64,000 nt of DNA from Oscillospiraceae bacterium. Its GTDB lineage: Bacteria > Bacillota > Clostridia > Oscillospirales > JAAYXM01. Position 1 is the stretch's first letter, and every line of letters begins with the position of its first letter. This document shows, piece by piece, positions 5,984-36,833 of this stretch. The DNA is taken from contig JAFQME010000024.1 of NCBI GenBank assembly GCA_017421025.1, positions 68,134-132,133 of the forward strand, written 5' to 3'. The notes under the pieces are model-generated. The model saw only the letters and a list, made by a program, of their open reading frames with translations, had not been told where the DNA came from and searched no databases. A program made the position numbers and the translations under genes.

Positions 5984-5998
5984 AAGGAGGGAGCACAT

Positions 5999-13382: not shown

Positions 13383-13455
13383 GATGAACGAACTGGAGAA
13401 TTCATAAGCGAACAAACGTTTTTCGAGGGCGGATCATGAGGCGTGCGTCAAGGGG

Positions 13456-18735: not shown

Positions 18736-18736
18736 C

Positions 18737-18761
18737 AAACCGCCCGTACAGGGCGGTTTTT
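18737..18761 (+). terminator. Rho-independent terminator after the yitT-like gene
   Basis: AAACCGCCC-GTACA-GGGCGGTTT followed by a T-run. Confidence 0.75.
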
Positions 18762-18802
18762 CCAAAACAGACATACGAACAAATGTTTTAAGGAGAGAGG
18801 AA

Positions 18803-19999
18803 ATGAAGTGTTATTTACCGGACATTGTCGGTGGCGGGTACCGTGAGTTTTGGAATTTTCGTGGGAGGTATCGGGTGGTCAAAGGGAGCCGTGCGTCCAA
18901 AAAATCCAAGACCGCTGCGTTGTGGTATATCGTACATCTGATGAAATACAGCGATGCGAATCTGCTTGTGGTACGAAAGACCGAACGAAGTCTTCGGGAT
19001 TCTTGTTTTGCGGATTTGATCTGGGCGATGGAGCGACTCGGGGTACGGGATCAATTCCATTGCACCACCGCACCGCTTTCCATTGTCTACAAGCCAACCG
19101 GGCAGCAGGTGCTGTTTCGTGGGGTGATGGAGAGTCTCAGACTCACCTCGATTGCGGTGAGTCGGGGGAGTTTGTGTTGGCTGTGGGTAGAGGAGGCATA
19201 TGAAATCGGAGACGAAGCCGAGTTTCAGACGCTGGATGAGTCTATCCGTGGCGATGGCGTGTTCAAACAAATCACGCTGACCTTCAACCCATGGAGCGAG
19301 ACCCATTGGCTGAAATCCCGCTTTTTCGATACATCGGACCCCGAAGTGCTTGCCATGACCGTGAATTACACCCAAAACGAGTGGCTGGATGAGAGTGACC
19401 GTGCCATGTTCGAACGGATGCGGGAACGGGATCCTCGCCGTTACCGTGTGGCGGGGCTTGGTGAGTGGGGGATTTGCGACGGGCTGGTGTATACCGATTG
19501 GGAGGAGTGCGACTTTGACGTGGATGCACTTCGCAGCAGCACCCGTGCGATTTTTGGGCTGGATTTTGGATACACCACCGACCCTGCCGCTTTGGTTTGT
19601 GCCCTGGCTGATGAGGGAGCTCGCACACTGTATATTTTCGATGAGCTTTATGCCAAGGGGCTGACCAACCGTGTGTTGGCGGAGCGAATCACATCACTTG
19701 GCTATGCAAAGGAACGTATCGTTGCGGATTCCGCTGAGCCGAAAAGCATTGCAGAGTTGAGAGAGTGGGGGATTACTCGGGTCACCCCGGCACGCAAAGG
19801 TGCGGATTCGGTGCGGAATGGGGTGCGTTATCTGCAGGATTGGCACATCTGCATCCACCCCCGTTGTACCGCATTTTTGGGCGAGATCTCACGCTTTGCA
19901 GAGACCCCGGACGGGACAAGCGGCGACGATCATCTCATGGACGCCCTGCGATATGCGGCAGAGGATCTCCGCCGAGGGGAGCTGTTTAGTTTTGAATGA
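18803..19999 (+). CDS. terL: Terminase large subunit (PBSX XtmB-like)
   Basis: AAGGAGAGAGG RBS before ATG 18803. Has the ATPase-like WVEEAYE (Walker B) and the C-terminal nuclease region GLDFGY...DHLMDALRY. The 18611 extension overlaps yitT and the terminator, so it is rejected. Confidence 0.85.
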   Translation: MKCYLPDIVGGGYREFWNFRGRYRVVKGSRASKKSKTAALWYIVHLMKYSDANLLVVRKTERSLRDSCFADLIWAMERLGVRDQFHCTTAPLSIVYKPTGQQVLFRGVMESLRLTSIAVSRGSLCWLWVEEAYEIGDEAEFQTLDESIRGDGVFKQITLTFNPWSETHWLKSRFFDTSDPEVLAMTVNYTQNEWLDESDRAMFERMRERDPRRYRVAGLGEWGICDGLVYTDWEECDFDVDALRSSTRAIFGLDFGYTTDPAALVCALADEGARTLYIFDELYAKGLTNRVLAERITSLGYAKERIVADSAEPKSIAELREWGITRVTPARKGADSVRNGVRYLQDWHICIHPRCTAFLGEISRFAETPDGTSGDDHLMDALRYAAEDLRRGELFSFE

Positions 20000-20853: not shown

Positions 20854-20887
20854 CACCGGAATCCATCAGAGATTCCGGTGTTTTTTT
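20854..20887. terminator. Bidirectional terminator between convergent cargo genes
   Basis: CACCGGAATC-7 nt-GATTCCGGTG, flanked by an A-rich stretch and T7. Confidence 0.75.
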
Positions 20888-22736
20888 AGTATGTAATCAG
20901 GATTAGTTCATCTTTGGGATGGAGAGTCACAGGTGCTGCAGTGTCCGTTTCAGAAGATAAGAAAGAAATCTCTTGACAGTCTGAGCCTTCCGGCTTAATG
21001 CCAACACACATTTTTTTCTTTCCGGAAGCCAGAAAGAAAGATTGGATCAATTCGGACTTAGAAGAGAATGTCATTTCTTGAGCATTGAATTCCAACAAAT
21101 CTTCGGCACGGATAATATCAAAATCGATACTACCGGCATCACCTATTCCGTTTGTGAGTATGATATCACGGTAGAAACGGCGGGAACCCGGGTGGGTGAG
21201 CAGTTGCGCCATAAAGAGAGAGATGATTTTACTTGACACAATAACCGAGGCAACCCCTAGGTTTTGCATGGAAATTAAGTTTTTCGGGTTTACAATTTCA
21301 GCATAGATTGGAATGTGTGGATCCAGTTTTCCGCTGATTTTCAATGAGATCAGTGCAATGAAAACATCAGCGTCCTGGTCTGCTTGGTTTCCTCTCTCCG
21401 ATGACAGAAGCAGAATCTTTTTATTACCGGGAATCGCACGGATATGCTCTGCGAAAATGTCGATATTTTCAGAGTAGGAATGTACTTCAACCGTGATGCT
21501 TTTACCGAATAAACGGTTATAGGCATCGAGCTCCTCGGAAACAAAGCGGACTCGGTCGGAGTCAGAAAGAATGATGAGTGTGAAATTTTCTCGGATGATC
21601 CTTTCTCTATAGGGAATGGGTTTTGCAAATGAATGGGGTGTTTTTCGCTCTTCAATGGATTCGAAATCGTCTGCAAGGAAATACAGTTGATCTGCTGCGG
21701 TTTCGCCGTTTTCGTCGATTTCGCAGTCGTCATCATAATTGATAATCGGAATACAGTTATGGTAACGATAGAGCGCTTGCTCCAAATCCATGGTGGGAAG
21801 GCTATAGAATTCGCATCCTTTATAGGAAAGGATATGGTGGAACAATTGGGAATAAAGAGGGTTGATGACTGCTCTGCCAAGAATATGACCGATGACTGAG
21901 TTGTGCGCAAAGACCGAAACACGATTTAACAAGGACGGATCTGTTTTGTGGAGAAAATGTTCGATTCGTTTTTCTGTGCTTTCATTTTCTACTTCAACTG
22001 CAATATTAGCACGGGATCCCATATTGCGAATTGCCATCAATACCTTAAAAGAGGATAAATCGGCATCTGAGATGAGAATTCCGTCATCTTCTGTGACGCT
22101 CTCATCGGAAAGAAGAACACCGATATACTTTGCATTATCGATGGAAACATCTTTCAAATGTTTGGATGAATTTGGAGTGCCATATTTGATAAACAATTCC
22201 ATATTCCGGATACTACGTTGGTTCTCGGTGAAGATGTTTTCAATGGAAGTCATAACTTCGTGGCGGTTCTTCTCGCAGAGAATGACAATTGTCTTTTTCT
22301 CCTCCTGAAATGACAGGTCATAAATAATGTTTGGACCAATGGCAGACCAGTTTAAAAAAACATAATGATCTCGTAATTTCAGTTTTCCAACATTTTCAAC
22401 ACGTTTGTTGATCGTAGATTGCAGAATGTCTGTGGTGAAACCGATGAGCGCACCCGAGAAGATTACCATTTGCACCACAGTGAGCACAATTTTGATGACA
22501 AAACAGGTGACATCTTCTTGTTGATTCACAAAGTCATAGATGCCGTCTGAACACATGGTATAGGTGAATAGATAGGAAAGCTCCTCGAAAAACGGATTTT
22601 TAGAGATGATTGAGAGTAATGCAGTGAAAAACAGGATGACAACGAGATTGATTGCAACCAATAGAAGGGCGATTGCTGCACGAGGATGGGTATACCAAAA
22701 TAGATAAAGCCCACCTGATTTTCTTTCTTTTTTCAT
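20886..22736 (-). CDS. Membrane protein with 2-TM pore-like N-terminus and tandem RCK/TrkA-like domains (CASTOR/POLLUX-type putative ion channel)
   Basis: 616 aa. TM segments AAIALLLVAINLVVILFFTALL and CFVIKIVLTVVQMVIFSGALIGF flank LFTYTMCSDGIYDF. RCK-like starts at HYVFLNWSAIGPNIIYDL and FTLIILSDSDRV. It lies antisense to the phage late genes. Confidence 0.6.
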   Translation of the reverse strand: MKKERKSGGLYLFWYTHPRAAIALLLVAINLVVILFFTALLSIISKNPFFEELSYLFTYTMCSDGIYDFVNQQEDVTCFVIKIVLTVVQMVIFSGALIGFTTDILQSTINKRVENVGKLKLRDHYVFLNWSAIGPNIIYDLSFQEEKKTIVILCEKNRHEVMTSIENIFTENQRSIRNMELFIKYGTPNSSKHLKDVSIDNAKYIGVLLSDESVTEDDGILISDADLSSFKVLMAIRNMGSRANIAVEVENESTEKRIEHFLHKTDPSLLNRVSVFAHNSVIGHILGRAVINPLYSQLFHHILSYKGCEFYSLPTMDLEQALYRYHNCIPIINYDDDCEIDENGETAADQLYFLADDFESIEERKTPHSFAKPIPYRERIIRENFTLIILSDSDRVRFVSEELDAYNRLFGKSITVEVHSYSENIDIFAEHIRAIPGNKKILLLSSERGNQADQDADVFIALISLKISGKLDPHIPIYAEIVNPKNLISMQNLGVASVIVSSKIISLFMAQLLTHPGSRRFYRDIILTNGIGDAGSIDFDIIRAEDLLEFNAQEMTFSSKSELIQSFFLASGKKKMCVGIKPEGSDCQEISFLSSETDTAAPVTLHPKDELILITY

Positions 22737-22857: not shown

Positions 22858-22894
22858 GAAACCCTTTGATTTACAAGGGGTTTCTTGTTTTTTT
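22858..22894 (+). terminator. Plus-strand intrinsic terminator-like hairpin just upstream of the portal gene
   Basis: GAAACCCTTTG-ATTTA-CAAGGGGTTTC (one G-U pair) followed by TTGTTTTTTT. Confidence 0.45.
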
Positions 22895-23052
22895 GTTTGA
22901 GGGAAGAGGACATTTACTGTCCTCTATGGGGTGTGGTATCATGGATATGCAAACGAAAGTTCGGGATATGGAGAAAGAGAAGCTGTGGGGATCCACGCAG
23001 TTTTTTTTACTTTGGTATTCGAACGGATGTTTGCGAGAAAGGAGGTGAAAGC

Positions 23053-24381
23053 ATGGCTTCGGATCGAAAGTTTTTGGAGTCGGAGCTCATGCGGTTTCGA
23101 GGGTCGAAGAAACGTGGAGAGATGCTGCTGGGCGTGCGTTATCACCGTGGCGACCATGACATTCTTTACCGCCGCCGCACGAGCATGGGGAAATCCGGTG
23201 AGGTGATGGAGTTAAAACATCTCCCGAATTCCCGGTTGGTTGACAACCAGTATGCCCGTGCAGTGGAGCAGAAAGCAGACTATCTGCTTTCCAAGCCCAT
23301 CGCATTTGAATGTGACGCCGAGGAGTATCGCACACACTTACGCCGCTTTTTCAACCGAGGATTTTTGCGACTGCTCAAGAGCGTTGCAAAAGACGCACTC
23401 AACTGTGGCATTGCATGGCTCCATCCGCACTACACCGAGAGCGGGGAGTTTACCGTGCGAAAATTTTCGGGTCATGAGATCCTGCCGTTTTGGAAAGACC
23501 GTGCCCATACCGAGTTGGACTGTGCGCTGCGTTTGTATGAGCGTGAGGAGTTCGACGGGAAAGAGACCTTACGTGTGGAATACGCCGAGCTGTATGACCG
23601 CTTCGGCATCACGTTTTTCAAAGTGGAGCGTGAGGGACTGGAATTTTTGCGGTTTGCACCGTACATGGTGCGTGACGGAGAGAGCCTTGCATGGGAGCGG
23701 GTGCCGTTGGTGCCGTTTCGTGCAAATGAGGAGGAGATTCCGCTGATTCGTCGGGTCAAGAGTTTGCAGGATGCGCTGAACATCGCATGGTCGGACTGGG
23801 CAAACGGAATGCAATCCTCTCCGTACAACGAGATTTTGGTGCTGAAGAATTATGACGGCACCGACCTCTCCGAATTCCGCAAGAACCTTGCTGCATACGG
23901 CGCTGTGAAAGTGCGCACGGTGGACGGCACAGACGGCGGACTTGAGCGCATGGAGGTCAAAGTGGATGCGGAAGGGTATCAGACCGTGATTCGGGAACTC
24001 AAGCGTGCAATCTTGGAGAATGCGATGGGATACGATGCCAAGGATGTCCGCACCGGCAGCAACCCGAATCAGATGAATCTGCGCTCGATGTACACCGACA
24101 TGGACTTGGATGCCAACAGCATGGAATGTGAATTCCAGGAATCCCTTGCCATACTTCTTGGCTTTTTCGCCGCACATCTTGCCATCTCGGGTGTGGGAGA
24201 TTTCACACACGAGCGAGTCAAGCTGGTCTTTAATCGAGATATGCTGGTAAACGAAGGTGAGATTTTGTCCGGGCTGGTGAATGCAGGGGTGACACTTTCC
24301 AACCGCACATTGGTCGGACAGGTCCCGTTTGTGGACGATGTGGCGGAAGAACTCATGCGAATCAAGGAGGAAACAACATGA
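23053..24381 (+). CDS. Portal protein (SPP1 gp6 / XkdE-like)
   Basis: GGAGGTGA RBS before ATG 23053. 442 aa, in the position after terL. The N-terminus pattern LGVRYHRGDHDIL and overall size are typical of this portal family. Confidence 0.8.
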   Translation: MASDRKFLESELMRFRGSKKRGEMLLGVRYHRGDHDILYRRRTSMGKSGEVMELKHLPNSRLVDNQYARAVEQKADYLLSKPIAFECDAEEYRTHLRRFFNRGFLRLLKSVAKDALNCGIAWLHPHYTESGEFTVRKFSGHEILPFWKDRAHTELDCALRLYEREEFDGKETLRVEYAELYDRFGITFFKVEREGLEFLRFAPYMVRDGESLAWERVPLVPFRANEEEIPLIRRVKSLQDALNIAWSDWANGMQSSPYNEILVLKNYDGTDLSEFRKNLAAYGAVKVRTVDGTDGGLERMEVKVDAEGYQTVIRELKRAILENAMGYDAKDVRTGSNPNQMNLRSMYTDMDLDANSMECEFQESLAILLGFFAAHLAISGVGDFTHERVKLVFNRDMLVNEGEILSGLVNAGVTLSNRTLVGQVPFVDDVAEELMRIKEETT

Positions 24382-24740
24382 CACGAGAAGAACTCATGAC
24401 CCTCGGAGTCCCCGAGGAGGCGGCGGACAAGATCATCTCACGCCGCAACGTTGAGGAGGCACTCAAGGCGGCCGGCGTCCGCAGTTTGAAACTCGCACTT
24501 CCGCTGATTGATGAGGCGGGGGATTTGGATGCACAAATCAAGGCACTTTCCGAGGATGCGGAGACCGCAATTCTGTTTGAAAGCGCACCGGTGCGAGGTG
24601 TGAGTCCGGGCGAGAGCGCAGATGAAGCGCTAGGGCTGGACCGTGAGACCTTCGAGGCGAGAAAACACGATCCCAACTGGATCAACCGAAACTGGGCACA
24701 GGTAGCAGACGCTCTGGAACATGGGCGTATCACAAATTAA
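24378..24740 (+). CDS. Scaffolding protein (XkdF/GP20-like)
   Basis: 120 aa, acidic and helical. ATGA overlap with portal, directly upstream of the capsid gene. Confidence 0.6.
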   Translation: MTREELMTLGVPEEAADKIISRRNVEEALKAAGVRSLKLALPLIDEAGDLDAQIKALSEDAETAILFESAPVRGVSPGESADEALGLDRETFEARKHDPNWINRNWAQVADALEHGRITN

Positions 24741-24752
24741 GGAGGAATTTTT

Positions 24753-25607
24753 ATGGCACTCAACAACTTTATTCCGCAGGTGTGGAGCGCACGCCTGCTC
24801 GAGAACCTGGAGAAGAATCATGTGTTTGCAGGTGTGGCAAACCGCACCTATGAAGGCGATATCCGTGCTTGCGGCGATCAGGTCAAGATCAATTCCATCG
24901 GCCCGATCAGCATTGGCACTTACACCAAGAACACCAACATCGAAGATCCGGAAACCCTGACCGATGCACAGATGGTATTGAACATCGATCAGGCGAAGTA
25001 CTTCAACTTCCAGATCGATGATGTTGACGCAGCACAGCAGTCGCCCAAGGTAATGGATGCGGCAATGCGTGCCGCAGCATATGCTCTGGCAGATGAAGCA
25101 GACCGCTTTATTGCAAATCTTTATTCGCAGGCAGCGGAGAAAAACTGCATCGGCACCAGCGAAACTCCGATGGAGCTCGAAGATGCCACCGAAGCATATC
25201 AGTATCTCGTACAGCTTGCGGTCAAGCTGGATGAGGCAAACGTTCCGCAGGCGGGTCGCTGGGTCATTGTTCCGGCATGGTTCCATGCAGCACTGCTCAT
25301 GGATCCCCGCTTTGTGCAGGCAGGCACCTCTGCTTCCGACCGCATTCTGCGTGTCGGTGAAGTGGGTGAGGCGGCAGGCTTTACCATCCTGACCTCCAAC
25401 AACGTCGCTTTGGATCAGGGTGCATACAAGATCATGTGCGGTGCAGAGCGTACCATTGCATATGCAGAGCAGATCACCGAAGTCAGTGCATACCGTCCGG
25501 AAAAACGCTTCGCAGATGCACTTAAGGGTCTGCATCTCTACGGTGCGAAGGTGGTCGACAGTGACGCACTTGCAGTCCTCTCGGTCAAACGCCCGGAGAC
25601 CCTGTAA
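24753..25607 (+). CDS. Major capsid protein (XkdG-like)
   Basis: 284 aa. AAGGAGGA RBS. MALNNFIPQVWSARLLENLEKNHVFAG is typical of this capsid family. Position is after the scaffold. Confidence 0.8.
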   Translation: MALNNFIPQVWSARLLENLEKNHVFAGVANRTYEGDIRACGDQVKINSIGPISIGTYTKNTNIEDPETLTDAQMVLNIDQAKYFNFQIDDVDAAQQSPKVMDAAMRAAAYALADEADRFIANLYSQAAEKNCIGTSETPMELEDATEAYQYLVQLAVKLDEANVPQAGRWVIVPAWFHAALLMDPRFVQAGTSASDRILRVGEVGEAAGFTILTSNNVALDQGAYKIMCGAERTIAYAEQITEVSAYRPEKRFADALKGLHLYGAKVVDSDALAVLSVKRPETL

Positions 25608-25610: not shown

Positions 25611-25889
25611 ATGGAGCAGGTGATACAGCGCCTGCGTGTGCTGGGCTATGAGATCGGAGAGGCTGAGCGTGACGGAGTGGAGCAGGCAATCGAGTTTGCC
25701 CGAGAAGAACTCTTGCGGCTCGCAAACCTGGAAGAACTTCCAACCGAATTGGAGGGGCTTTTGTGTGAGCGTGCTGCCGAGCGGTATCTCCTGATGCGTG
25801 GGGTACACCGTGTGAAATTGGGGGATCTCACGCTGGAACTTCGTGACACCCCGCCCGATGTTGCACGGTATCGCAAGGTGGTGTGGTGA
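25611..25889 (+). CDS. Head-tail connector/DNA-packaging-like small protein (XkdH position)
   Basis: 92 aa. Called on synteny only. Confidence 0.5.
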   Translation: MEQVIQRLRVLGYEIGEAERDGVEQAIEFAREELLRLANLEELPTELEGLLCERAAERYLLMRGVHRVKLGDLTLELRDTPPDVARYRKVVW

Positions 25890-26212
25890 TGAGAGTTTTG
25901 TTTCCGCACACTTGCCGTGTGATTGCATACCGTGACACGATTGACCCCGTAAGCGGAGTGACAAAACAGACGCCGCACACACTGATTGAGTCCTTGCCCT
26001 GCATGGTTTCCTTTCGCCGCTCCCCGGAAGGGGAGCGGGAGGATGGGGCTGTGGTGTTTCGACAGGGCATCCGCTTGTATGCCCCGCCGCAGACCGAGCT
26101 TCCGCCCGGATGTGCGGTGGAGTTTGGCGGGCGTGTGTACCGACACAGCGGAATGGACGCAAGCTACCCCAGCCACACAGAATTTGACTTGATATTGGAG
26201 GGGAAAGCATGA
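25889..26212 (+). CDS. Head-tail adaptor-like protein (XkdI position)
   Basis: ATG 25889 overlaps the upstream TGA (GTG 25883 is an alternative). Called on synteny only. Confidence 0.5.
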   Translation: MRVLFPHTCRVIAYRDTIDPVSGVTKQTPHTLIESLPCMVSFRRSPEGEREDGAVVFRQGIRLYAPPQTELPPGCAVEFGGRVYRHSGMDASYPSHTEFDLILEGKA

Positions 26213-26589
26213 TCGAACTGATTACCAAAAAATTGCATGACACCTTGGGGGTAACCGTGTATGCCGAAACCGTACCGCAGGGGCTGAATACGCCGAGTAT
26301 TTCGGTATTTGCAAAGGAACTCAAAGTCCTGGGAGAATGCGAGGGCTGGATTCTTTGCAAAGCCGAGTTTCGTGCGGTGGTACGAGAACTGCCTGCCGAG
26401 TTGGTGGCGGATGCACTCGGATTCGTCACTGACCGGGAGGGACAAGTGTACCGTGGTGAGGAGATTTACGCTACGGCAGACGAGGGACAAACCGAGGTGT
26501 ATGTGACGTTTCGGTACCGTGCCCGTGTGACGGAAACGATCGAGGCGGCACCCCTCATGGAAGTAATGACACAAAATACGGAGGTTTGA
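26209..26589 (+). CDS. Tail-completion/minor head-tail protein (XkdJ position)
   Basis: 126 aa. ATGA overlap. Called on synteny only. Confidence 0.5.
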   Translation: MIELITKKLHDTLGVTVYAETVPQGLNTPSISVFAKELKVLGECEGWILCKAEFRAVVRELPAELVADALGFVTDREGQVYRGEEIYATADEGQTEVYVTFRYRARVTETIEAAPLMEVMTQNTEV

Positions 26590-26590
26590 G

Positions 26591-26746
26591 ATGGAAGAAA
26601 TGAGATATACATTGGAGCAGCTGTTGGAAAGCAGTCGTTTCCGCCGCCGTGCGGATGCACTGAAAACCATCCTGCCCGACGGGGAATATACCCTTGAAGA
26701 AGCGGATGCGGCACTTACCGCATTCATGGAAAGGAGTGTGAAGTAA
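26591..26746 (+). CDS. Small hypothetical phage protein (51 aa)
   Basis: ATG lies 2 nt after the upstream stop. Product is MEEMRYTLEQLLESSRFRRRADALKTILPDGEYTLEEADAALTAFMERSVK. The stop abuts the sheath ATG. It is below the ORF-track size cutoff. Confidence 0.5.
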   Translation: MEEMRYTLEQLLESSRFRRRADALKTILPDGEYTLEEADAALTAFMERSVK

Positions 26747-28021
26747 ATGGCACTTGGAAACGGTACCTTCAGCGTACAGAACAAGGTTCTGCCGGGAAGT
26801 TATGTGAAGTTTATCAGCGCAGTTCGTGCAAACGCTTCTCTTTCTGAGCGTGGTGTGACAGCACTGATGCTCCCAACCCTTTGGAATCCGGGAGTTCTCG
26901 TCACATTGCATCCCGAGGATTTGGCGAAAAGCGAAAGCCTCTTTGGCTATGCACCGGAGAGTGCGGAACTGCGTCCGTTGCGTGAAGCATTTTGTTCGTG
27001 CGGGACGGTGTTGGTCTACACCGTGGGTGCAGGGACGATCGCATCCTGCGAAATCGGGAACGCGGCAAAAGCCGGGAGTTTCGGCAATCAGATTCGTGTC
27101 ATTGTCAGCCAAAACCCGGATTGGACTGCCGTAAATATGAAGATGGACGTTGTGACCACATTAAACGGGGTGGAAGTGGACCGCCAGACCGGGGTCAATG
27201 CGAGTGTAATCCAGGGCGAAATCAAGTCGAACGACTTTGTCACGTTTGATCAGCTGGCAGTGCTGGATCGCCCCACTACATATGCGATGAGCGGCGGCAG
27301 CAGTGAGACTGTGACCGTGGCACACTACCAGGCGGGCTTAGACCGTTTGGAGCGTGAGACCTTCAACACCCTTGCTTACGGCGGAAGTGATTCGGAGATC
27401 AAAAGCTTATTTGCCAACTACACCCGCAGAATGCGTGAGGAGTGCGGCGCACTGTTCCAGTGTGTTCTGCACGGACAGGATGCCAATTACCGTGGTGTGG
27501 TCAACGCTGCAAATGCGGATGCTGTGGATTGGATTGCAGGTGCGCTGGCAGGCTGCGCACTCAATGCGAGTTTGACCAATCTGGAATACAACGGGGAATG
27601 CAGCCTGGAACTCCCGGAAACACGGGAGGATCTGCTTTCCCTGATGGAAGCACGTCAGTTTGCGTTCCACAGTGTGGGTGGCTCGCCCCGTGTCCTCGCT
27701 GACATCAACTCGGAGGATGATCCGCTCTTCGGACAGAATCAGGCACTGCGTGTGCTGGATCAGGTGGCGGGAGACATTGCAACCCTGTTTTCCACCAGTT
27801 ATTTGGGCAAAATCCAGAACAACAGCGCAGGCCGCATGAGTTTTTGGAACGACACCGTGCATCTGTTCAACCAGCTTTCTCAACTGGGTGCGATTGAGGA
27901 CTTCTCTTCGCAGGATGTCACGGTAGAGGAAGGAAGCGAGAAAAATGCGGTGACTGTTACCGCACAGATTCGTCCGGTATGCAGCATGGAGAAGCTGTAT
28001 TTTACCGTGACGGTTATTTAA
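26747..28021 (+). CDS. Contractile tail sheath protein (XkdK-like)
   Basis: 424 aa. MALGNGTFSVQNKVLPGSYVKFISA is a typical sheath N-terminus. Followed by the tube gene. Confidence 0.85.
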   Translation: MALGNGTFSVQNKVLPGSYVKFISAVRANASLSERGVTALMLPTLWNPGVLVTLHPEDLAKSESLFGYAPESAELRPLREAFCSCGTVLVYTVGAGTIASCEIGNAAKAGSFGNQIRVIVSQNPDWTAVNMKMDVVTTLNGVEVDRQTGVNASVIQGEIKSNDFVTFDQLAVLDRPTTYAMSGGSSETVTVAHYQAGLDRLERETFNTLAYGGSDSEIKSLFANYTRRMREECGALFQCVLHGQDANYRGVVNAANADAVDWIAGALAGCALNASLTNLEYNGECSLELPETREDLLSLMEARQFAFHSVGGSPRVLADINSEDDPLFGQNQALRVLDQVAGDIATLFSTSYLGKIQNNSAGRMSFWNDTVHLFNQLSQLGAIEDFSSQDVTVEEGSEKNAVTVTAQIRPVCSMEKLYFTVTVI

Positions 28022-28032: not shown

Positions 28033-28503
28033 ATGAGTATTACGATGAGTCCTGCGGATGTAGTCAATGCCGGTATGGCGAAATGCTATGTCAACGTGGG
28101 TGGTCGACGCTATCTCATGATGATGGCGCGTGATTTTGAAGCGAAGTTCAAGAAAAAGACGGCGGCAGTTCCGATTTTGGGACGTAGAATGACCGGACAC
28201 AAATCCACCGGTGCAGAAGGAATTTTTTCCATGACCATTTACAAAGTGACCGATCTCTTTGATGAGATGTGCCAAGCCTATCAGGAAAGCGGCGATGAGA
28301 TCACCTTTGACATTATGGTCACGGTAAGTGATCCGCAGAGTTCTGCCGGGACCTCCTCCAAGATCTTCCATGACTGCGTGCTTTCGGGCGAGGTCGGTCT
28401 TGCGGCACTCAGCGCAGAAAACAAGTGGCTGGAGCAGACTGTGGAAGGTTATTTCGACAACTTTGAAATCTACCAGAAGTTTGCCGACCCGAAGGAGATG
28501 TAA
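28033..28503 (+). CDS. Tail tube protein (XkdM-like)
   Basis: 156 aa. AAGGAGG RBS. Position and size fit. Confidence 0.75.
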   Translation: MSITMSPADVVNAGMAKCYVNVGGRRYLMMMARDFEAKFKKKTAAVPILGRRMTGHKSTGAEGIFSMTIYKVTDLFDEMCQAYQESGDEITFDIMVTVSDPQSSAGTSSKIFHDCVLSGEVGLAALSAENKWLEQTVEGYFDNFEIYQKFADPKEM

Positions 28504-28887
28504 ATGGGACTGAGCGAATTCTTGCGTGAAAACGTTGGTACGTATCCGGAAAAGACGGTAAAACTTTCCGAGCGTTTGGGTGAGTTTACCGTGCGTGCGC
28601 TTTCTGCCGATGAGGATGCCGCTCTGCGTGCTCGCTGTACCGTGCGCATCGCAGACGGTCGTGGCGGGAGTTTTCCGGAAGTTGATCCAAACCGATACCT
28701 CCTTGCGGTTGCGGCGGAGAGCGTGGTGTATCCGGATCTCTCAAGTGTCGAGCTTCAGGATTCCTACCACACCATCGGGCGTGAGGATACCCTGGTTGCC
28801 ATGCTGATGAAGCCTGAGTTTGACCGCTTATGTGAGTTTCTCACAGTGGAGGGGTTTGCGGAATTGGTGGACCGCGCAAAAAAATGA
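28504..28887 (+). CDS. Tail assembly chaperone (XkdN-like)
   Basis: 127 aa, between the tube gene and the TMP slot. Ends on the slippery run GCA AAA AAA TGA. Confidence 0.7.
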   Translation: MGLSEFLRENVGTYPEKTVKLSERLGEFTVRALSADEDAALRARCTVRIADGRGGSFPEVDPNRYLLAVAAESVVYPDLSSVELQDSYHTIGREDTLVAMLMKPEFDRLCEFLTVEGFAELVDRAKK

Positions 28888-29027
28888 TCCGCGGCGGCGG
28901 CAGTGACGCACGGCTTGCATGTGACTGTCTCATGCGCTTTGGCTGGCCGCCGTCGCAAACCATGCGTCTGAGTGCGAGAGAGCGGGCATTTGTCTGCGCC
29001 GCACTGGAGGAAGGAGGAACATTATGA
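28878..29027 (+). other. Putative -1 programmed frameshift site (A AAA AAA) and 47-codon extension of the tail chaperone
   Basis: A7 run at 28878-28884. The -1 frame reads MIRGGGSDARLACDCLMRFGWPPSQTMRLSARERAFVCAALEEGGTL* and stops at 29025-29027, overlapping ATG 29024 of the next gene. Confidence 0.55.
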
Positions 29028-29734
29028 CCATTTGGGCAAATCGACTCTATCCTCGGGAGGGGGCGGCATATTCCGCCCCCTTTGGGGGGACCTCGGAGCC
29101 GCCGATCCCCGTGTTGGAACGGGTGAGAACGCCCCGTGCTGCAACGGCGGAACAACCCGTGGCTGTAAATCCGGGGCAGCCTTCGGTTGAGAGTCGCCCG
29201 ACGGTGTATCGCAGTACATACAACACCGAGAACAATGCAGCAGTGTATCAAAACGCAAACAACACCGAAAACAACTCGGCGGTGTATCAAAACGACTACA
29301 ATACCGAAAACAACTCGGCGGTGTATCAAAACGCACATAACACCGAAAACAACTCGGCGGTGTACCGAAGCGATTACAACACCGAGAACAACTCGGCGGT
29401 GTACCGAAACGATTACAACACCGAGAACAACTCGGCGGTGTACCGAAACGATTACAACACCGAAAACAGTTCGGCGGTGTACCGAAACGACTACAACACC
29501 GAAAACAGTTCGGCAGTGTACCAAAACGACTACAACACGCAAACTCATTCTGCGGCGTATCGCAAGGAATACAATACCGAGAAGAATCAAACCGTGTACC
29601 ACACCGAGGTGCGTGTGGATGTGGTCAACCACAACCAAATCAAAAGCGGAGAGGATATGGAAGCGTTGGCAGAACGCTTTGCCGAGGCGCTGCGTGAGCG
29701 TATCTTCTCGGCTGCCGAGGGGGTGTATGCATGA
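29024..29734 (+). CDS. 236-aa Tyr/Asn-rich repeat protein occupying the tape-measure position
   Basis: The gene is translationally coupled on both sides. About ten 13-aa repeats of the form AVY(Q/R)NDYNTENNS are followed by the C-terminal helical segment EDMEALAERFAEALRERIF. Confidence 0.7.
   Translation: MTIWANRLYPREGAAYSAPFGGTSEPPIPVLERVRTPRAATAEQPVAVNPGQPSVESRPTVYRSTYNTENNAAVYQNANNTENNSAVYQNDYNTENNSAVYQNAHNTENNSAVYRSDYNTENNSAVYRNDYNTENNSAVYRNDYNTENSSAVYRNDYNTENSSAVYQNDYNTQTHSAAYRKEYNTEKNQTVYHTEVRVDVVNHNQIKSGEDMEALAERFAEALRERIFSAAEGVYA
29204..29593 (+). repeat. Tandem array of ten in-frame 39-nt repeats
   Basis: Unit starts fall at 29204, 29243, 29282, 29321, 29360, 29399, 29438, 29477, 29516 and 29555. 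Central units are near-identical and outer units are diverged. Confidence 0.9.
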
Positions 29735-30372
29735 GTTTTCGAGTCAAACTCGGGGAAATCACCTTCCCGGTTGCACCAACGAAAATCACAGTGGTACAAA
29801 AAAGCCGAAACCGCACGGTGGATCTCATTGACGGGAGTCAGACCGTGATTGCAAAGAAACCGTCACTCCGTGAGTACCGTATGGAACTCATTTTGCCACG
29901 CAGATTGTATCCGTTTGCCTTTTATGAAAGCGAATTTCTTCCGCCCGAGCATTTTTTGGATGCGGTAAATTCCTATGCGTATAGCGGAAAGGCGGTTAGC
30001 CTTGTCGTAGAACGGGGAGTTTCTTATGAGTCCTGCCCGGTCTTTGTCGGGGATGCCACTTGTGTGGAAAATGCGGCAGACGGTGAGGATGTTACGCTTA
30101 GCTTGACCTTGTTGGCGAGCGATGAGGAGAATGTGTATCCGAAGGTGCCGAAAACCTATTTTGCACGGACAGATGATACCTTGCGTCTGATTGCACGCAA
30201 GGTTTGGGGTGATGAAACACGTTGGACTGAGTTGTACCGTGCCAATCGGGATCAAATCGAGCATGCGGCACGCAAGGCGGGATTTGCAGACTCCCGCTTG
30301 GGCGAACGTCTGATTCCGAATCTCGAACTTGTGATTCCGCAGGAGGTGGACAGTTATGGCAAGCGGAGCTGA
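29731..30372 (+). CDS. LysM-domain tail protein (XkdP-like)
   Basis: C-terminal YFARTDDTLRLIARKVWGDETRWTELYRANRDQI is LysM-like. Synteny supports the call. Confidence 0.7.
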   Translation: MSFRVKLGEITFPVAPTKITVVQKSRNRTVDLIDGSQTVIAKKPSLREYRMELILPRRLYPFAFYESEFLPPEHFLDAVNSYAYSGKAVSLVVERGVSYESCPVFVGDATCVENAADGEDVTLSLTLLASDEENVYPKVPKTYFARTDDTLRLIARKVWGDETRWTELYRANRDQIEHAARKAGFADSRLGERLIPNLELVIPQEVDSYGKRS

Positions 30373-31870
30373 TGTGGTACGCACCGCAAAAAGCCAGCTG
30401 GGACTTTCTGGTGCCAGCCGCTACGGAGGCAAAGCCGGTGAGGCGTGGTGTTCTTATTTCGTGACTTGGTGTGCAAGAAAAGCCGGGGTAAAGGCAACCA
30501 TTGTGCCGAAAAAACCGAGATGTGACGATCTGCGTGCGTACTATATCGCAGACGGCTTCTACCACCCTCGCAGTGGCTACACACCCCGTGTGGGCGATAT
30601 CATTTGCTTCCATTGGGGCGATGCACAAGATGCGTATGCACATGTCCAACACGTTGGCTTGGTAAGCGGAGTGGATCAGACCTATGTCTACACGGTCGAG
30701 GGAAATGCGGGGCTGGAGGGCAAGGTGTGTGCCTTCCGCTACCGCAGAAACGCATATTCCATCCTGGGGTATTGCAGCCCGGCTTACGAGGAGAAGAGCG
30801 GGAAATCCAAGAAAACGGGCGGCTCTGCATCGAGTAGGAAGCTTCCCATCACCGAAACGAACGTTGCGGTGGTGGAGGAGCATCCGGTCATCACTCGTGT
30901 CACCGCCGACGGCAGGGTGGTGCCGACAACGCCGAAAAGCGGGGTCCTCACCATCGCAATCACAGCGGAGGGGAACACGTTTACCCCGAAAGTGTTGGCA
31001 GGCGCAAGCCTTTCCCATACACAGTGGGGTGCCGGAGTGCTGAACTTTGAGGTGCTGCCTGGCGGGAATTCGTTCTTTGAAGGCAGCCGTGTGTATGCCG
31101 CCTCAGGGGAAACACCGCTCTTTTACGGATATGTCTTTTCCAAAACCCGGGATGAGGATGGGGTCATTCGTGTGACCGCATACGACAGCCTGCGTTACTT
31201 CAAAAACAAAGACACCTATATCTATGAAAACAAGACCGCATCCGCACTCTTTTCCGCCATCTGCCGTGACCACGGGATTGCCAAATACCATGCGGAGGAG
31301 AGTGGCGTGACACTTCCGTATCGGGTGGAGGACAACAACACCCTGTTGGACATCATGGAATACGCCTTGTGTGAGACCGAAAAGAAAAGCGGAGTGCGGT
31401 ATGTCCTGCGGGATGAGGCGGGGACGCTCACACTGCGTCGTGCAAAAGCGAGCGGTGTGGTGTTGGATGAACACAACATCACAGGCTTTTCCTACACCTC
31501 CTCGATTGACGGAAGTCTCAACCGGGTCAAAACCGTCACCGAAGGGGACGGGGTGCGGAACATCCGCTTGGTGCAGGACTCGGAATCCATTTCACGCTTC
31601 GGTCTGCTGCAAACCGTGTTAAAACAGCGTGAGTATGATTTGAACGCCGCCCGTGAATTGCTCAACTCCAAAGCCGGAGTACGCCGCAAACTCAAACTTC
31701 AGGTGCGTGGCGACACCCGACTGTTGGCGGGCGACACCGTGGTGGTACGGGGTGTGTGGGGAGATGTCACGCTCAACAACGAGTTTTACATCGCATCCTC
31801 CCACCATGTATGGGACGGGACACACCACAGCACCACTGTGACTCTGGAAGGGGGCGATTTTGATGCATGA
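30356..31870 (+). CDS. CHAP/NlpC-P60-type peptidoglycan hydrolase fused to XkdQ-like (gpD-like) baseplate hub protein
   Basis: The N-terminus GEAWCSYFVTWCARKAG...HVQHVGLV...VEGN gives a Cys/His CHAP pattern. The C-terminal ~330 aa sit at the XkdQ position. Confidence 0.7.
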   Translation: MASGADVVRTAKSQLGLSGASRYGGKAGEAWCSYFVTWCARKAGVKATIVPKKPRCDDLRAYYIADGFYHPRSGYTPRVGDIICFHWGDAQDAYAHVQHVGLVSGVDQTYVYTVEGNAGLEGKVCAFRYRRNAYSILGYCSPAYEEKSGKSKKTGGSASSRKLPITETNVAVVEEHPVITRVTADGRVVPTTPKSGVLTIAITAEGNTFTPKVLAGASLSHTQWGAGVLNFEVLPGGNSFFEGSRVYAASGETPLFYGYVFSKTRDEDGVIRVTAYDSLRYFKNKDTYIYENKTASALFSAICRDHGIAKYHAEESGVTLPYRVEDNNTLLDIMEYALCETEKKSGVRYVLRDEAGTLTLRRAKASGVVLDEHNITGFSYTSSIDGSLNRVKTVTEGDGVRNIRLVQDSESISRFGLLQTVLKQREYDLNAARELLNSKAGVRRKLKLQVRGDTRLLAGDTVVVRGVWGDVTLNNEFYIASSHHVWDGTHHSTTVTLEGGDFDA

Positions 31871-32108
31871 GTTGGTGGATCTCATCCGACTCGCCGCTTT
31901 GCAGGCGGTTGAAAACACCCAACCCGTTGACGTGGTGTGCGGACGGGTGGAAGAGGCAGCGCCGCTGAACATTACGATTGAGGGCGCACCGGTTCGGTTG
32001 CTGCTGCGTGCAAATCAGCCCGAACTTGCAAAAGATGATACGGTCTTGCTCCTGCGCTTGCAGGGCGGACAGGCATTTTTGATTTTGGATAAGGCGGTGG
32101 AAGTATGA
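31863..32108 (+). CDS. XkdR-like small baseplate protein (DUF2577-like)
   Basis: 81 aa. Synteny. ATG 31863 overlaps the upstream gene end. Confidence 0.55.
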   Translation: MHELVDLIRLAALQAVENTQPVDVVCGRVEEAAPLNITIEGAPVRLLLRANQPELAKDDTVLLLRLQGGQAFLILDKAVEV

Positions 32109-32467
32109 TACCGAATGTGAGTGTTTCCGCATATGCCGCATATGACGGAGAGCGTGATTACACCTTAAAAGACGGGCGCATGGGACCCATCTCGCAGGGG
32201 CGGGAGACCCTTCCGGGCTGGATTACGGTTGCCCTGACCACAGAGCGGGGAGCGTACCCCATTTTTTCCAAGGAATTCGGGATTCCGCTTTCCGGTGCGG
32301 ATGACCGAAGTTTGGAACGTGCTGTGCGCAGCGCACTCATGCGGGATGAACGCATCCGCTCGGTCGATGAGGTGAAGATTTTAAGAGAAAGGGGAGAAGT
32401 CTCGGTGCGTCTGAACGTGCAGACGGTCTATGGCGTTTGCGAGACCGAAACAAAACTCAATGTTTGA
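32105..32467 (+). CDS. XkdS-like baseplate protein (gp25/W-like)
   Basis: 120 aa. ATGA overlap. Synteny. Confidence 0.55.
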   Translation: MIPNVSVSAYAAYDGERDYTLKDGRMGPISQGRETLPGWITVALTTERGAYPIFSKEFGIPLSGADDRSLERAVRSALMRDERIRSVDEVKILRERGEVSVRLNVQTVYGVCETETKLNV

Positions 32468-33494
32468 AGGATATACCTATGAAACTGTGTTGGGGCGCAT
32501 GCTGGACCGCCTGCCCCCGACACTGGATCGGCGTGAGGGCTCGTTTTTATACGCCGCCCTCGCCCCGACTGCGTGGGAACTGAGTGAGGCGTATGCCAAC
32601 TTGGAACGTGCATTGCAGGACGGTTTTGCCGCCACCGCAACACGGGAATCCCTGATTCTGCTTGGGCGGGAGCGAGGACTTGCACCCGAGCCTGCAACCT
32701 TTGCGTTGGTGGAGGTGAAATTCCCCACCGATTCTTTGGAAATCGGGAGTACGTGTACCACAGACGGACAGGCATTTTCGGTGGAAAGCCGAAAGGAAGA
32801 GAGCGTGTACCGCTTGCGTGCGAAAGCATCGGGCGAGATTGGAAACCTCGCCTTGGGAAAGACTTTGTTTTATTCCGCACAAGCGGGGAGTCTGCTGTGT
32901 GACGTGCTGAGTATCGTGTCGCCCGGGCTTCCCGAGGAGGACACCGAGAGTTTCCGTGCCCGATATTTTGACAGCCTTTCGGCACAGAGCTTTGGCGGAA
33001 ACCGTGCCGATTATGTGGAGCGTACCCGTGCGATTCCCGAGGTGGGCAGTGTGAAAATCCTGCCTGCCTGGAACGGCGAGGGGACGGTGAAGGTCATCTT
33101 CACCGATGAAAACGGTGCTGCCCCGAGTGAGGACCTGGTAAAAACCGTGCAGGAGCAGGTGGAGGGATTTGCCCCCATCGGACACACGGTCACCGTGGCC
33201 CCGGCAAGTCCGGTCTTCTTGGACGTCAGCGCAAAGCTGGAGTACGAAGAGGATGTGGATGTGGATGCGGTGCAAACCGCAGTCATGGATGCGTTGGTGG
33301 ATCGGTTTGATCTGCTGGTGCAGGAATGGCACGATCGGGAACAGAGCATTGTACGTTACGGGAAGATCCATGCGTGTATCTTGGATTGCGCCGGGGTGGC
33401 AGGTGTGACCGACCTTGTCATCGCAGGAGGAAGCGAAAGCCTGACCCTGCGACCCGAGGAGATCCCGGAACTCGGCGATCTGGTGATCGAATGA
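32460..33494 (+). CDS. Baseplate J-like protein (XkdT-like)
   Basis: MFEGYTYETVLGRMLDRLPPTLDRREGSFLYAALAPTAWEL is a typical baseplate J N-terminus. Confidence 0.8.
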   Translation: MFEGYTYETVLGRMLDRLPPTLDRREGSFLYAALAPTAWELSEAYANLERALQDGFAATATRESLILLGRERGLAPEPATFALVEVKFPTDSLEIGSTCTTDGQAFSVESRKEESVYRLRAKASGEIGNLALGKTLFYSAQAGSLLCDVLSIVSPGLPEEDTESFRARYFDSLSAQSFGGNRADYVERTRAIPEVGSVKILPAWNGEGTVKVIFTDENGAAPSEDLVKTVQEQVEGFAPIGHTVTVAPASPVFLDVSAKLEYEEDVDVDAVQTAVMDALVDRFDLLVQEWHDREQSIVRYGKIHACILDCAGVAGVTDLVIAGGSESLTLRPEEIPELGDLVIE

Positions 33495-34036
33495 AACTGA
33501 TTCGTCATCTTCCTCCGGTTTTGGCATCGGTTGCGGAATACCGTGCCCTTTGCGATACCGTGGAGGAGGAACTTGGTGAAATGCGGGCGATGATTGAGGC
33601 TGTGCGGAGGGAACTGGTCATTTCCACCGCACGGGAGGTGGGACTCACTGCCTGGGAGGAGATGCTGCTGCTTTCGGGGGACGGGAGTGTTGAAGAGCGC
33701 CGTGCCGCAATCCTCTCTTGGGTCACGCTTTCACGCCCGTACAGCATTTCCGCTTTGAATATGCGGCTGACCTTGCTGGTGGGAAAGCACGGCTATACCC
33801 TCCGGGTCTCGGACCGCACCGTCAAAGTCACGTTGAGTTTGGAAGCGAAAGGGGCATATGGCACAGTGTGCAAGATGCTGCGTGAGTTCCTGCCGTCAAA
33901 CATCAGCCTGACTGTGGAAATCAAACTGGCACGTTATGGGGAGTTGGAAGAACTCTCGCATGATACTCTGAGCCAATACACACATGAAATGATACGAAAT
34001 GAGGTGGCAACCAATGGAGCAAACAACATATTATAA
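33491..34036 (+). CDS. XkdU-like tail protein (DUF2313-like)
   Basis: ATGA overlap. MKLIRHLPPVLASVAEYRALCDTVEEEL is typical of the family. Confidence 0.65.
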   Translation: MKLIRHLPPVLASVAEYRALCDTVEEELGEMRAMIEAVRRELVISTAREVGLTAWEEMLLLSGDGSVEERRAAILSWVTLSRPYSISALNMRLTLLVGKHGYTLRVSDRTVKVTLSLEAKGAYGTVCKMLREFLPSNISLTVEIKLARYGELEELSHDTLSQYTHEMIRNEVATNGANNIL

Positions 34037-34415
34037 ATTAAATTTACCATCGGGTGAGGACTACTACAACATCGAGCACCAAAACGAGAACCTGCGCACA
34101 CTTGATGCTGCTCTGTTCGGACGCATCGGTGCAGGCAGTTACGTGGGCGACGGCGAGAGTGAGCGATTCATTCCGCTTCCTCGCACACCGAGCTTTGTGT
34201 TGGTCATGAGAAGCGGCAGTCAATTCGCTTCGGAGAACAGACGCTACGGCGGCATGGCACTTGAGGAAAGCCCTGCGATTGCAAACGGGGTGGCATATCT
34301 CACGGTTGAGGAGGGCGGATTTCGCCTGAAACACGTGGAAGATGTGTTTGACGGCTCGCTTGCTACCATGCATGTGAACTCCACGGGCGAGACCTATCAC
34401 TATCTGTGGGGGTGA
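34014..34415 (+). CDS. Very short tail-fibre-position protein (133 aa)
   Basis: GAGGTGG RBS. The N-terminus MEQTTYYKLNLPSGEDYYNIEHQNENLRTLD resembles the conserved N-termini of fibre/XkdV-type proteins. Confidence 0.55.
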   Translation: MEQTTYYKLNLPSGEDYYNIEHQNENLRTLDAALFGRIGAGSYVGDGESERFIPLPRTPSFVLVMRSGSQFASENRRYGGMALEESPAIANGVAYLTVEEGGFRLKHVEDVFDGSLATMHVNSTGETYHYLWG

Positions 34416-35883: not shown

Positions 35884-36219
35884 ATGAATCAAAGAACATA
35901 CACAGTTGACTTTCGAGACGTCACGAACTTTTTGGAAATGCATGCAGCCATCTTTGAAGGGTTGGAATTCCCCGACTATTACGGATGCAATTGGTCTGCA
36001 TTTTGGGACTGTATCACCGATATGTTTGGGGAACCGATGTTAATTGAAATTCTCGGGATTGATGTGATTGAGCGATTGTTCGACGATGATGCATCCAAGA
36101 TGCTGAACATTCTCAAACGACGGAAACATCGTTACCCGATGTTTGATGAGGACATTCGAATTGAAATCGTCCAAGGAGATGAACGCATCGAAATCGACGA
36201 TTATCCGATCAAAGAGTGA
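35884..36219 (+). CDS. Barstar-family ribonuclease inhibitor (copy 1, intact)
   Basis: LEFPDYYGCNWSAFWDCITDMFGEPMLIEIL compares with barstar [30 protein letters not shown]. The gene starts 11 nt after the barnase stop with an AGGAGGG RBS. Confidence 0.8.
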   Translation: MNQRTYTVDFRDVTNFLEMHAAIFEGLEFPDYYGCNWSAFWDCITDMFGEPMLIEILGIDVIERLFDDDASKMLNILKRRKHRYPMFDEDIRIEIVQGDERIEIDDYPIKE

Positions 36220-36500: not shown

Positions 36501-36833
36501 ATGAATCAAAGAACATATACGGTCGATTTTCGAAACGTCACGCACTTTTTGGAAATGCATGCAGCCATCTTTGAAGGGTTGGAATTCCCTGACTATTACG
36601 GATGCAATTGGGACGCCTTTTGGGATTGCTTGAAAGATATGTTCGGGAAGTCAATACAGATCGAGATTCTTGGGATTGATGTGATTGAGCGGCTGTTCGA
36701 TGATGATGCACGAATCATGCTGTCGACGCTCAAGGAATGGAAGGAATATGAAGCAGATTTTAGGGATGTTCAAGTTGAGATCGTCCGAGGAGACGAGCGC
36801 ATCGAAATCGACGATTATCCGATCAAAGAGTGA
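36501..36833 (+). CDS. Barstar-family ribonuclease inhibitor (copy 2, intact, orphan)
   Basis: 110 aa, highly similar to copy 1 (MNQRTYTVDFRNVTHFLEMHAAIFEGLEFPDYYGCNWDAFWDC). Confidence 0.8.
   Translation: MNQRTYTVDFRNVTHFLEMHAAIFEGLEFPDYYGCNWDAFWDCLKDMFGKSIQIEILGIDVIERLFDDDARIMLSTLKEWKEYEADFRDVQVEIVRGDERIEIDDYPIKE

Follow-up and report, generated by a model that had tools for sequence, protein, structure and literature searches.

How short can the tape-measure protein (TMP) of a contractile tail be? The question is raised by a stretch of 64,000 nucleotides from an Oscillospiraceae bacterium (GenBank assembly GCA_017421025.1, contig JAFQME010000024.1), hereafter the window, in which an open reading frame (ORF) of 236 aa at 29024..29734 (+) occupies the TMP slot of a contractile-tail gene cluster. 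The ORF opens with an ATG, and a strong Shine-Dalgarno sequence, GGAGGAAGGAGG, lies 6-8 nt 5' of its start. To our knowledge, nearly all TMPs are long helical coiled coils, the textbook molecular ruler. A first-pass annotation, made from the letters of the window alone, had described the gene as a repeat-built and exceptionally short protein in the TMP slot. We suggest, with a probability of roughly 60%, that it is the TMP of a PBSX/diffocin-like contractile-tail element that resides in the chromosome, has been miniaturised and makes a very short tail. The element is possibly similar to a gene transfer agent (GTA).

Identity of the 236-residue protein

The gene order in the window is sheath, tube, XkdN chaperone, a -1 frame extension of the chaperone, mini-TMP, XkdP-like protein, CHAP-YQBQ hub, DUF2577, sheath initiator and baseplate J. 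The order around the mini-TMP is identical in five related loci (L001, L009, L012, L015 and L016). The XkdN-type tail assembly chaperone (28504..28887 (+), 127 aa) is assigned by Pfam Phage_TAC_5 (E = 1.3e-18) and PHROG 389. Comparison of the loci reveals a slippery heptamer, A_AAA_AAA, for -1 frameshifting at the end of its gene (28878..28884 (+)), leading into a -1 frame of 47 codons (28884..29027 (+)) that encodes a gpGT-like chaperone extension. The chaperone gene ends with GCA AAA AAA TGA in the window, L001, L009 and L015, and with A_AAA_AAC in L012. In L012, the extension frame contains neither an ATG nor any other start codon and can thus be reached solely by -1 frameshifting. The extension peptide is conserved in five loci (...RFGWPPSQT.RLSARERAFVCA.LEEGG...), and the stop codon of its frame overlaps the start of the TMP gene (TTATGA). 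The earlier statement that the 236-aa gene is the only one between the chaperone and the XkdP-like gene therefore needs an amendment, as this conserved frame lies there too. The G/GT frameshift arrangement of the chaperone classically precedes tape-measure genes, and the known role of the chaperone and its extension is to handle the TMP during length-controlled assembly.

The C-terminus of the protein is homologous to that of long TMPs. Its last ~43 residues match positions 663-705/706 of PHROG 1068, "tail length tape measure protein", as they do in all four family members tested (best E = 1.8e-4). The C-terminus also aligns to aa 723-761/762 of the TMP of Clostridioides phage phiC2 (pairwise E = 0.002), which occupies the corresponding slot, ahead of a LysM protein. 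A family profile built from nine members was used for an exhaustive search of 1.84 billion representative proteins. Twelve clusters (50% identity) of proteins of 106-197 aa match the profile end to end with E <= 3e-16. The next matches, 35 in number, begin nine orders of magnitude higher (E 4e-7 to 1e-3); most are proteins of 514-1021 aa that align at the extreme C-terminus only, and eight out of eight tested proteins of that size score strongly as PHROG 1068 TMPs. The common motif can be recognised by eye: the long TMPs read ...NRFTTAEIKVEMTNNNxINSExDLDGIV..L.E.LEE.M..AAEGVH, and the mini-TMP reads TVYHTEVRVDVVNHNQIKSGEDMEALAERFAEALRERIFSAAEGVYA.

From the synteny, the conserved frameshifting chaperone upstream and the C-terminal homology to long TMPs, the 236-aa protein is a TMP ortholog that retains the C-terminal domain of the family, so the slot proposed for the gene by the first-pass annotation is upheld. 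No long TMP is found among the ORFs of the 64-kb window. A 735-aa ORF at 3776-5983 without a family match was considered as a hidden TMP and rejected; it gives no PHROG or Pfam TMP signal and lies in a separate low-GC block. That a TMP of normal length from elsewhere in the genome, for example from another prophage, is used in trans and the small protein is an accessory is extremely improbable: only 64 kb of the genome is visible, but the mini protein itself has a hub-docking C-terminus, is encoded directly behind the chaperone, and this arrangement recurs in every clade locus examined, including a contig of 111 kb.

The closest sequence relatives are thus the XkdO/PHROG 1068 TMPs, such as phiC2 gp20 (762 aa) and diffocin CD1366 (817 aa). 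They share the slot, with an XkdN chaperone before it and LysM/XkdP and hub-hydrolase proteins after it, and they share the homologous C-terminal ~45 residues, ending in ...AEGV[YH]. However, the mini-TMPs have 106-236 aa instead of 500-1000, an N-terminal motif of their own, and a polar Asn/Thr/Tyr-rich spacer that is not predicted to be helical.

The N-terminal motif, MTIWANRLYPRE (aa 1-12, 29024..29059 (+)), is conserved in the alignment of nine members, where M1, W4, N6, L8, Y9 and P10 are invariant. The twelve mini-TMP clusters share the form M.[IL]W.N.[LM].P. A looser pattern, W.N.[LM].P, is present in all 14 members and absent from all 35 C-terminus-only matches (P0014-P0048, mostly long TMPs). 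One of the latter, P0031, is a protein of 224 aa in which the TMP C-terminal domain is joined to an unrelated N-terminus; it could represent either another lineage of mini-TMPs or a TMP gene that was split.

The motif is followed by a non-repetitive Pro/Ala/Glu-rich spacer (aa 13-59, 29060..29200 (+)), which is poorly conserved and length-variable in the family and is modelled by AlphaFold2 (AF2) as coil with a predicted local distance difference test (pLDDT) score <50. Then come ten repeat units (aa 60-189, 29201..29590 (+)) and the C-terminal TMP domain (aa 190-236, 29591..29731 (+)) with its matches to PHROG 1068 and the C-termini of long TMPs. Using the nine-sequence alignment, AF2 predicts a sole helix, at aa 209-234 in the window protein (29648..29725 (+)) and at aa 79-104 in the 106-aa member P0005, with a pLDDT of about 62-77 in the two models, the rest being low-confidence coil. 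By comparison with residues 795-817 of the diffocin TMP, this terminal helix is likely to be the one that docks on the spike or hub (PMC11329794).

The spacers of mini-TMPs consist mostly of N/T/E/V/S/Y and are poor in Leu/Ile, whereas long TMPs consist mostly of A/I/L/G. The mean Pace-Scholtz helix propensity is 0.62 for the window protein, versus 0.46-0.52 in long TMPs. The hydrophobic or transmembrane helices, the globular segments and the TMP_3 region of long TMPs are all missing. The spacer is probably non-helical and extended rather than coiled-coil, unlike the helical coiled-coil body of the diffocin TMP (PMC11329794). This is suggestive only, because the AF2 models are monomeric and of low confidence.

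The repeat array and the mini-TMP family

Tandem Repeats Finder reports a 39-nt period at 29219-29587 with 89% matches, zero indels and scores of 423-458, as well as higher-order rows of 78 and 117 nt. It is the sole sizeable tandem array within 18-37 kb. In the protein it corresponds to ten complete in-frame units of 13 aa (aa 60-189, nt 29201-29590) with the consensus AVY[QR]NDYNTENNS. A hidden Markov model (HMM) of the unit also counts ten, and the lag-13 self-identity of the protein is 0.54 (z = 20.6 against shuffles). The repeat-built nature of the ORF is thus confirmed, as is the number of units in the first-pass annotation, but its array at 29204-29593 is one codon (3 nt) out of register. 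The 13 residues directly after unit ten, TVYHTEVRVDVVN, share only the opening xVY with the unit and open the C-terminal domain.

Pairwise identity among units 2-8 is 79-97%, and a single nucleotide out of 39 separates units 5 and 6, and likewise units 7 and 8. Units 1, 9 and 10, at the edges, have diverged further and are older than the central ones. Within the unit, Tyr3, Asn8 and Thr9 never vary, and Val2 and Glu10 are each present in nine of the ten copies. Tyr3, Asn8, Thr9 and Glu10 each use two synonymous codons across the array, which suggests that these residues are constrained at the protein level. As the unit length is a multiple of 3 nt, a change in copy number keeps the reading frame, and phase variation (on/off) of the array was rejected for that reason. 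A minus-strand ORF of 265 aa over the array (28841-29638) is not a credible gene; it is a stop-free by-product with a repetitive, Val/His/Arg-rich translation.

The other members of the family from both searches have 106, 106, 109, 117, 117, 126, 132, 132, 133, 154, 166, 170 and 197 aa, which makes the 236-aa protein the longest. Both ends are conserved, but the middle spacer varies freely in length and sequence. Every member whose contig was examined is encoded by a small gene in the matching slot of a matching cluster, including the 111-kb contig L012 and L009, a contig of an NCBI Eubacteriales metagenome-assembled genome. The family is rare. A word-indexed search of 5.8 billion proteins gave only eight clusters, and the mini-TMP alignment, scanned against contigs of GTDB genomes, contigs of JGI metagenomes and IMG/VR, gave no related loci. 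The alignment of the XkdP-like protein gave nothing in metagenome or viral collections. The sheath protein detected a single locus, L009, in genome contigs and none in IMG/VR, and the material for comparison was drawn from protein databases.

The 13-aa periodicity is significant in the three closest members only. Besides the ten units of the window, P0001 (170 aa) contains ~5-6 diverged units (z = 7.5) and P0002 (133 aa) ~3 units (z = 4.8), in agreement with the earlier proposal that the number of units varies. More distant members have non-repetitive polar spacers. A 13-aa quasi-repeat ancestral to the whole family was therefore rejected, as both the lag analysis and the unit HMM confine the repeat to these three members, and the ten-unit array is a recent, lineage-specific, in-frame expansion.

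Similar processes are known from siphophages. The TMP units of TP901-1 and Staphylococcus phages (Belcaid et al. 2011; PMC3271669) also show in-frame gain and loss of short units, a periodic aromatic marker and changes in TMP length. However, those units are 11 aa, or 11-11-18, marked by W/F, in long helical TMPs of non-contractile tails, whereas the unit here has 13 aa with Tyr. The first-pass annotation had taken the periodic aromatic residues as consistent with a TMP origin. This argument is weak, as published TMP repeats are 11-13 aa long with W/F markers inside alpha-helices (PMC3271669, PMC7296036), and the units described here are Asn/Thr/Tyr-rich and not predicted to be helical. A 2026 survey also found that tandem repeats are typically missing from myovirus-type TMPs (PMC13585406).

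The closest functional analogue is the TMP of the Rhodobacter capsulatus GTA (RcGTA), g11. It is also a short ruler, of ~216 aa, in a domesticated, miniaturised particle with five tube hexamers, and it likewise has 12-13-residue repeats and a C-terminal helix (PMC7296036). RcGTA differs in its non-contractile siphovirus-type tail, its alphaproteobacterial host and in having the repeats in a 113-residue alpha-helix, and no sequence relationship is detected. A limited literature search turned up no contractile-tail system reported to have so small a TMP.

A proposed short ruler and its alternatives

We suggest that the mini-TMP could act as a stripped-down ruler in three parts: the 12-residue N-terminal motif, the polar spacer and the ~45-residue C-terminal domain. 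If diffocin and other TMPs are a guide, the mini-TMP would be held by the XkdN chaperone and its frameshift product, and a trimer would dock through the C-terminal helix on the spike and hub, built from the DUF2577 and CHAP-YQBQ proteins. Tube and sheath would then polymerise around the docked protein, and growth would end once the terminator or collar reaches the N-terminal motif. In diffocin, the TMP of 817 aa is a trimer of ~1388 Å spanning 32 layers; at one end the C-terminal helix forms a bundle with the spike, and at the other the N-terminus lies at the collar (PMC11329794). Two small proteins are candidates for the partners at either end. From the diffocin structure (PMC11329794), the DUF2577 (XkdR-like) protein at 31860..32108 (+) (Pfam DUF2577, E = 8e-11) is a candidate for the spike that receives the C-terminal helix. 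The gene at 26209..26589 (+) is a candidate tail terminator, which Pfam Phage_tail_terminator_8 matches weakly (E = 2e-4, short of the curated cutoff); its position equals that of the tail-terminator genes in outgroup loci, and its product might be the collar-side partner of the N-terminus.

The length of such a tail can be estimated from the diffocin calibration (1.7 Å/residue) or from a textbook, fully extended chain (~3.4 Å/residue). The former gives ~40 nm (~9 layers) for 236 aa, ~18 nm for the 106-aa relatives and, with the unit helical, ~2.2 nm per unit. The latter gives up to ~75 nm and ~31 nm, respectively, and ~4.4 nm per unit, which is roughly one tube layer; that correspondence is a numerical coincidence, not a result. 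By either estimate, the tail is probably unusually short, with a length that could be changed through the number of repeats, and ten units would make the tail of the window strain the longest in the clade.

If so, the family represents a ruler cut down to its two functional ends and a short, polar, apparently non-helical spacer, with natural variants from 106 to 236 aa and a regular ladder of 13-aa repeats. It would provide a minimal natural system for asking which parts a TMP cannot do without, what length in angstroms each residue of a ruler that is not helical accounts for, and down to what size a contractile tail still fires.

Several points weigh against the ruler proposal. The mini proteins have no match to a Pfam TMP family in a Pfam scan, a profile search of PDB sequences returned nothing meaningful for them, and tblastn of the 236-aa protein against 50,697 phage records gave no match even at E = 10. 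The AF2 models have a mean pLDDT of 44 and 53 and are monomers, whereas TMPs act as trimers or hexamers. The N-terminal motif is without a known partner. The copy number of the unit rests on short-read metagenome assemblies of one population. Finally, a helical ruler of 106 aa leaves room for only ~4 layers, the baseplate counted in, and a contractile tail may not work at that size; length may be set in another way.

A bolder version of the ruler proposal can be formulated, which we regard as speculative and unlikely. According to it these would be the shortest contractile tails known, with a handful to ~17 sheath layers, measured by an extended ruler that is not a coiled coil, in which one 13-residue unit (~44 Å if extended) spans one layer; each unit gained or lost would lengthen or shorten the tail by exactly one layer. 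The element itself would be a GTA-like particle of gut Eubacteriales, miniaturised and with a contractile tail, and a possible source of the GTA-like packaging in gut Clostridia.

The most serious competitor to the ruler, although we consider it rather unlikely, is that the protein derives from a TMP but no longer measures. It would instead be an initiator or plug that starts the tube on the hub and closes the channel, perhaps ejected first, tail length would be set otherwise (e.g. by terminator kinetics), and the repeats would be a tolerated disordered linker. The predicted disorder and fast evolution of the spacer fit such a role, as do the 106-aa members, which seem too short to span a useful tail, and the short TMP of RcGTA is also a channel plug with needle-like features (PMC7296036). 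However, if the C-terminus alone matters, it is hard to explain a strictly conserved N-terminal motif at a distance of 50-180 residues from the docking domain. Further, the chaperone and its frameshift extension are retained under selection, and the codon usage of the kept residues in the repeat, discussed above, suggests constraint.

It is quite improbable that the gene is real but its ten-unit count is an artefact, caused by collapse or expansion of the 390-nt array during assembly. In its favour are the near-identity of units 5/6 and 7/8 and the supporting contigs, which are short-read metagenome scaffolds, one of them with an N gap elsewhere. Against this, two more metagenome assemblies, made from other samples, contain the identical 236-aa protein and array, and over 13-17 kb they match the window at 99.98-99.99% identity; the first-pass annotation had named assembly collapse as a concern, and it finds no support in these three assemblies. 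Moreover, most units bear distinguishing substitutions, so their order can be resolved, and the array reads through without an indel or a break in frame. The hub genes of the window and L007 seemed to differ by a 24-nt indel, but this proved to be a stretch of N that marks a gap in the scaffold.

A further alternative is that the small protein is what remains of a normal TMP that decayed through an internal deletion, in an element that has lost its functional tails. Sheath proteins were compared, and six outgroup loci were looked up. Sheath homologs form a tight group of 65-80% identity, which equals the mini-TMP clade, and all others are at most 44% identical. In four outgroup loci, with sheaths 38-44% identical, the TMP-slot genes encode 691, 708, 586 and 663 aa, and three of these four long TMPs have a TMP_3 match. 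The claim that the TMP of the window is exceptionally short thus holds (236 against 586-708 aa). Three of the four loci are ordinary prophage-like clusters with MuF, a scaffold of 198-253 aa and a capsid of 317-467 aa, two of them with a visible terminase, and the locus of the 691-aa TMP, L017, is a headless tailocin-like cluster. One outgroup locus is rearranged and without a TMP. In L019 (sheath 43% identical), a portal-first, terminase-less head-and-tail cluster, the TMP slot holds an atypical 348-aa protein (12499-13545 (+)), which is acidic and Phe/Ser-rich with a TMP-like C-terminal end, ...EIRVDFSGMKNIINNETDADSLVADLTEAVREAVTAAAEGVYEL. TMP reduction may therefore have occurred more than once in domesticated clusters.

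Selection was assessed by the ratio of nonsynonymous to synonymous substitution rates (dN/dS). It is 0.06-0.37 for portal, capsid, tube, tail assembly chaperone, TMP, XkdP, hub, baseplate J and the fibre-like gene, with dS >1 in every computable pairwise gene comparison and saturated between lineages. For the mini-TMP it is 0.24-0.37 overall, and for its C-terminal domain 0.01-0.32 with dS saturated for most pairs; against the closest relative, L001, the domain has dN 0.009, dS 0.72 and dN/dS 0.01. The neighbouring head, tail and lysis genes are intact (dN/dS 0.06-0.32). The whole structural cluster is under long-term purifying selection.

Decay is consistent with mini-TMPs being 3-6 times shorter than outgroup TMPs, with the lack of the hydrophobic and globular segments of long TMPs, with the absence of an integrase from the window, where replication genes are uncertain, and with L012, in which no terminase lies beside the portal. 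However, the short architecture is found with intact frames in twelve 50%-identity clusters, the frameshift site is conserved, and dN/dS is low for the mini-TMP, its C-terminal domain and the intact neighbouring genes. The first-pass annotation had offered a deleted TMP in a tail-defective element as its alternative. TMPs of 106-197 aa are instead the conserved state of the clade, with both ends and the neighbouring genes under purifying selection, and we consider the alternative very improbable.

The gene cluster and its surroundings

The element encoding the mini-TMP covers at least the genes from portal to amidase (about 22.9-35.5 kb), and a gene for a large terminase lies upstream of these (18611-19999). 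Three cargo genes lie between the terminase and the SPP1-type portal (22885-24381). The head genes are a scaffold-like protein of 120 aa (24378-24740 (+)) and a capsid protein of 284 aa (24753-25607 (+), Phage_capsid_4), followed by adaptor and terminator-like small proteins (25611-26746). The tail begins with the sheath (26747..28021 (+), 424 aa), which matches Pfam Phage_sheath_1, Phage_sheath_1C and domII as well as PHROG 279 (E = 3e-80), and the tail tube (28033..28503 (+), 156 aa; Pfam DUF2001 (tail tube), E = 2.5e-31). Downstream of the chaperone and the mini-TMP are the XkdP-like baseplate protein (29731..30372 (+), 213 aa; PHROG 380, E = 2e-21), which resembles the LysM proteins encoded after the TMP in C. 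difficile myophages, and a hub-hydrolase of 504 aa (30356..31870 (+); Pfam YQBQ, E = 5.6e-66, and CHAP, E = 4.5e-11). The DUF2577 protein, a sheath initiator, baseplate J and a Mu gp48-like protein occupy 31860-34036. A fibre-like protein of 138 aa without a family match (33999-34415 (+)) is followed by small ORFs and the amidase, up to 35485; at the corresponding position in L007 a holin is called. No integrase is found in the 64-kb window.

It is not only the TMP that is small. The mini-TMP clade has the 120-aa scaffold-like protein, the 284-aa capsid, no MuF homolog and a fibre-like protein of 133-138 aa, compared with scaffolds of 175-253 aa, capsids of 317-467 aa and tail-fibre-slot proteins of at least 300 aa in the outgroups. 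Judged by these gene sizes, the whole particle looks miniaturised, as in GTAs.

The element resembles PBSX of Bacillus subtilis, in that head, contractile-tail and lysis genes lie clustered in the chromosome and encode XkdM/N/P/Q/R/S/T/U-type proteins. However, the TMP of PBSX (XkdO) is long and its tail ordinary. FpGTA, a GTA-like element of the gut, has been described as probably podovirus-like with no mention of a sheath, whereas the present element has a sheath gene. In L012, a 111-kb contig with the cluster in 1-20399, the genes from portal to amidase lie between host-type genes and no terminase adjoins the portal. Its terminase is either encoded elsewhere, as in the split FpGTA loci, or lost. 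The flanks of this cluster are an AAA_14/DUF4143 ATPase upstream and the capsule genes CpsB and Wzz downstream.

A rare, conserved and miniaturised head-and-contractile-tail element in gut anaerobes is a candidate for a GTA- or PBSX-like particle. GTA-like packaging is reported to be widespread in gut Ruminococcaceae, Oscillospiraceae and Christensenellaceae, with most of the responsible gene clusters unidentified (PMC12946183).

Some other genes of the window can be noted. One of the cargo genes, on the minus strand between terminase and portal (20886-22736 (-)), encodes a 616-aa membrane protein with a weak RCK-like domain. A 67%-identical homolog is present in L015 (1991-3901 (-)), just upstream of the portal and beside a 1091-aa TIR-domain protein, and the gene may be a conserved cargo or defence gene of the element family. 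About 6 kb upstream of the terminase there is a DnaC-like helicase loader (11643-12673 (+); PHROG 50, E = 1e-33) together with a small transcription-regulator-like ORF, and between these and the terminase are five ORFs without hits and a YitT membrane protein. Directly downstream of the amidase lie tandem paralogs of barstar, the barnase inhibitor (35884-36219 and 36501-36833 (+)), which are 61% identical; a barnase-like toxin gene was not noticed near them. Finally, a block at 203-11248 (+) has a GC content of 43-45%, against 52-56% in its surroundings, and encodes three large proteins: one of 1173 aa with an N-terminal Tubulin_2 domain, the 735-aa protein without a family match, and one of 1749 aa with a transglutaminase-like core. 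This block may be a horizontally acquired conflict or defence system.

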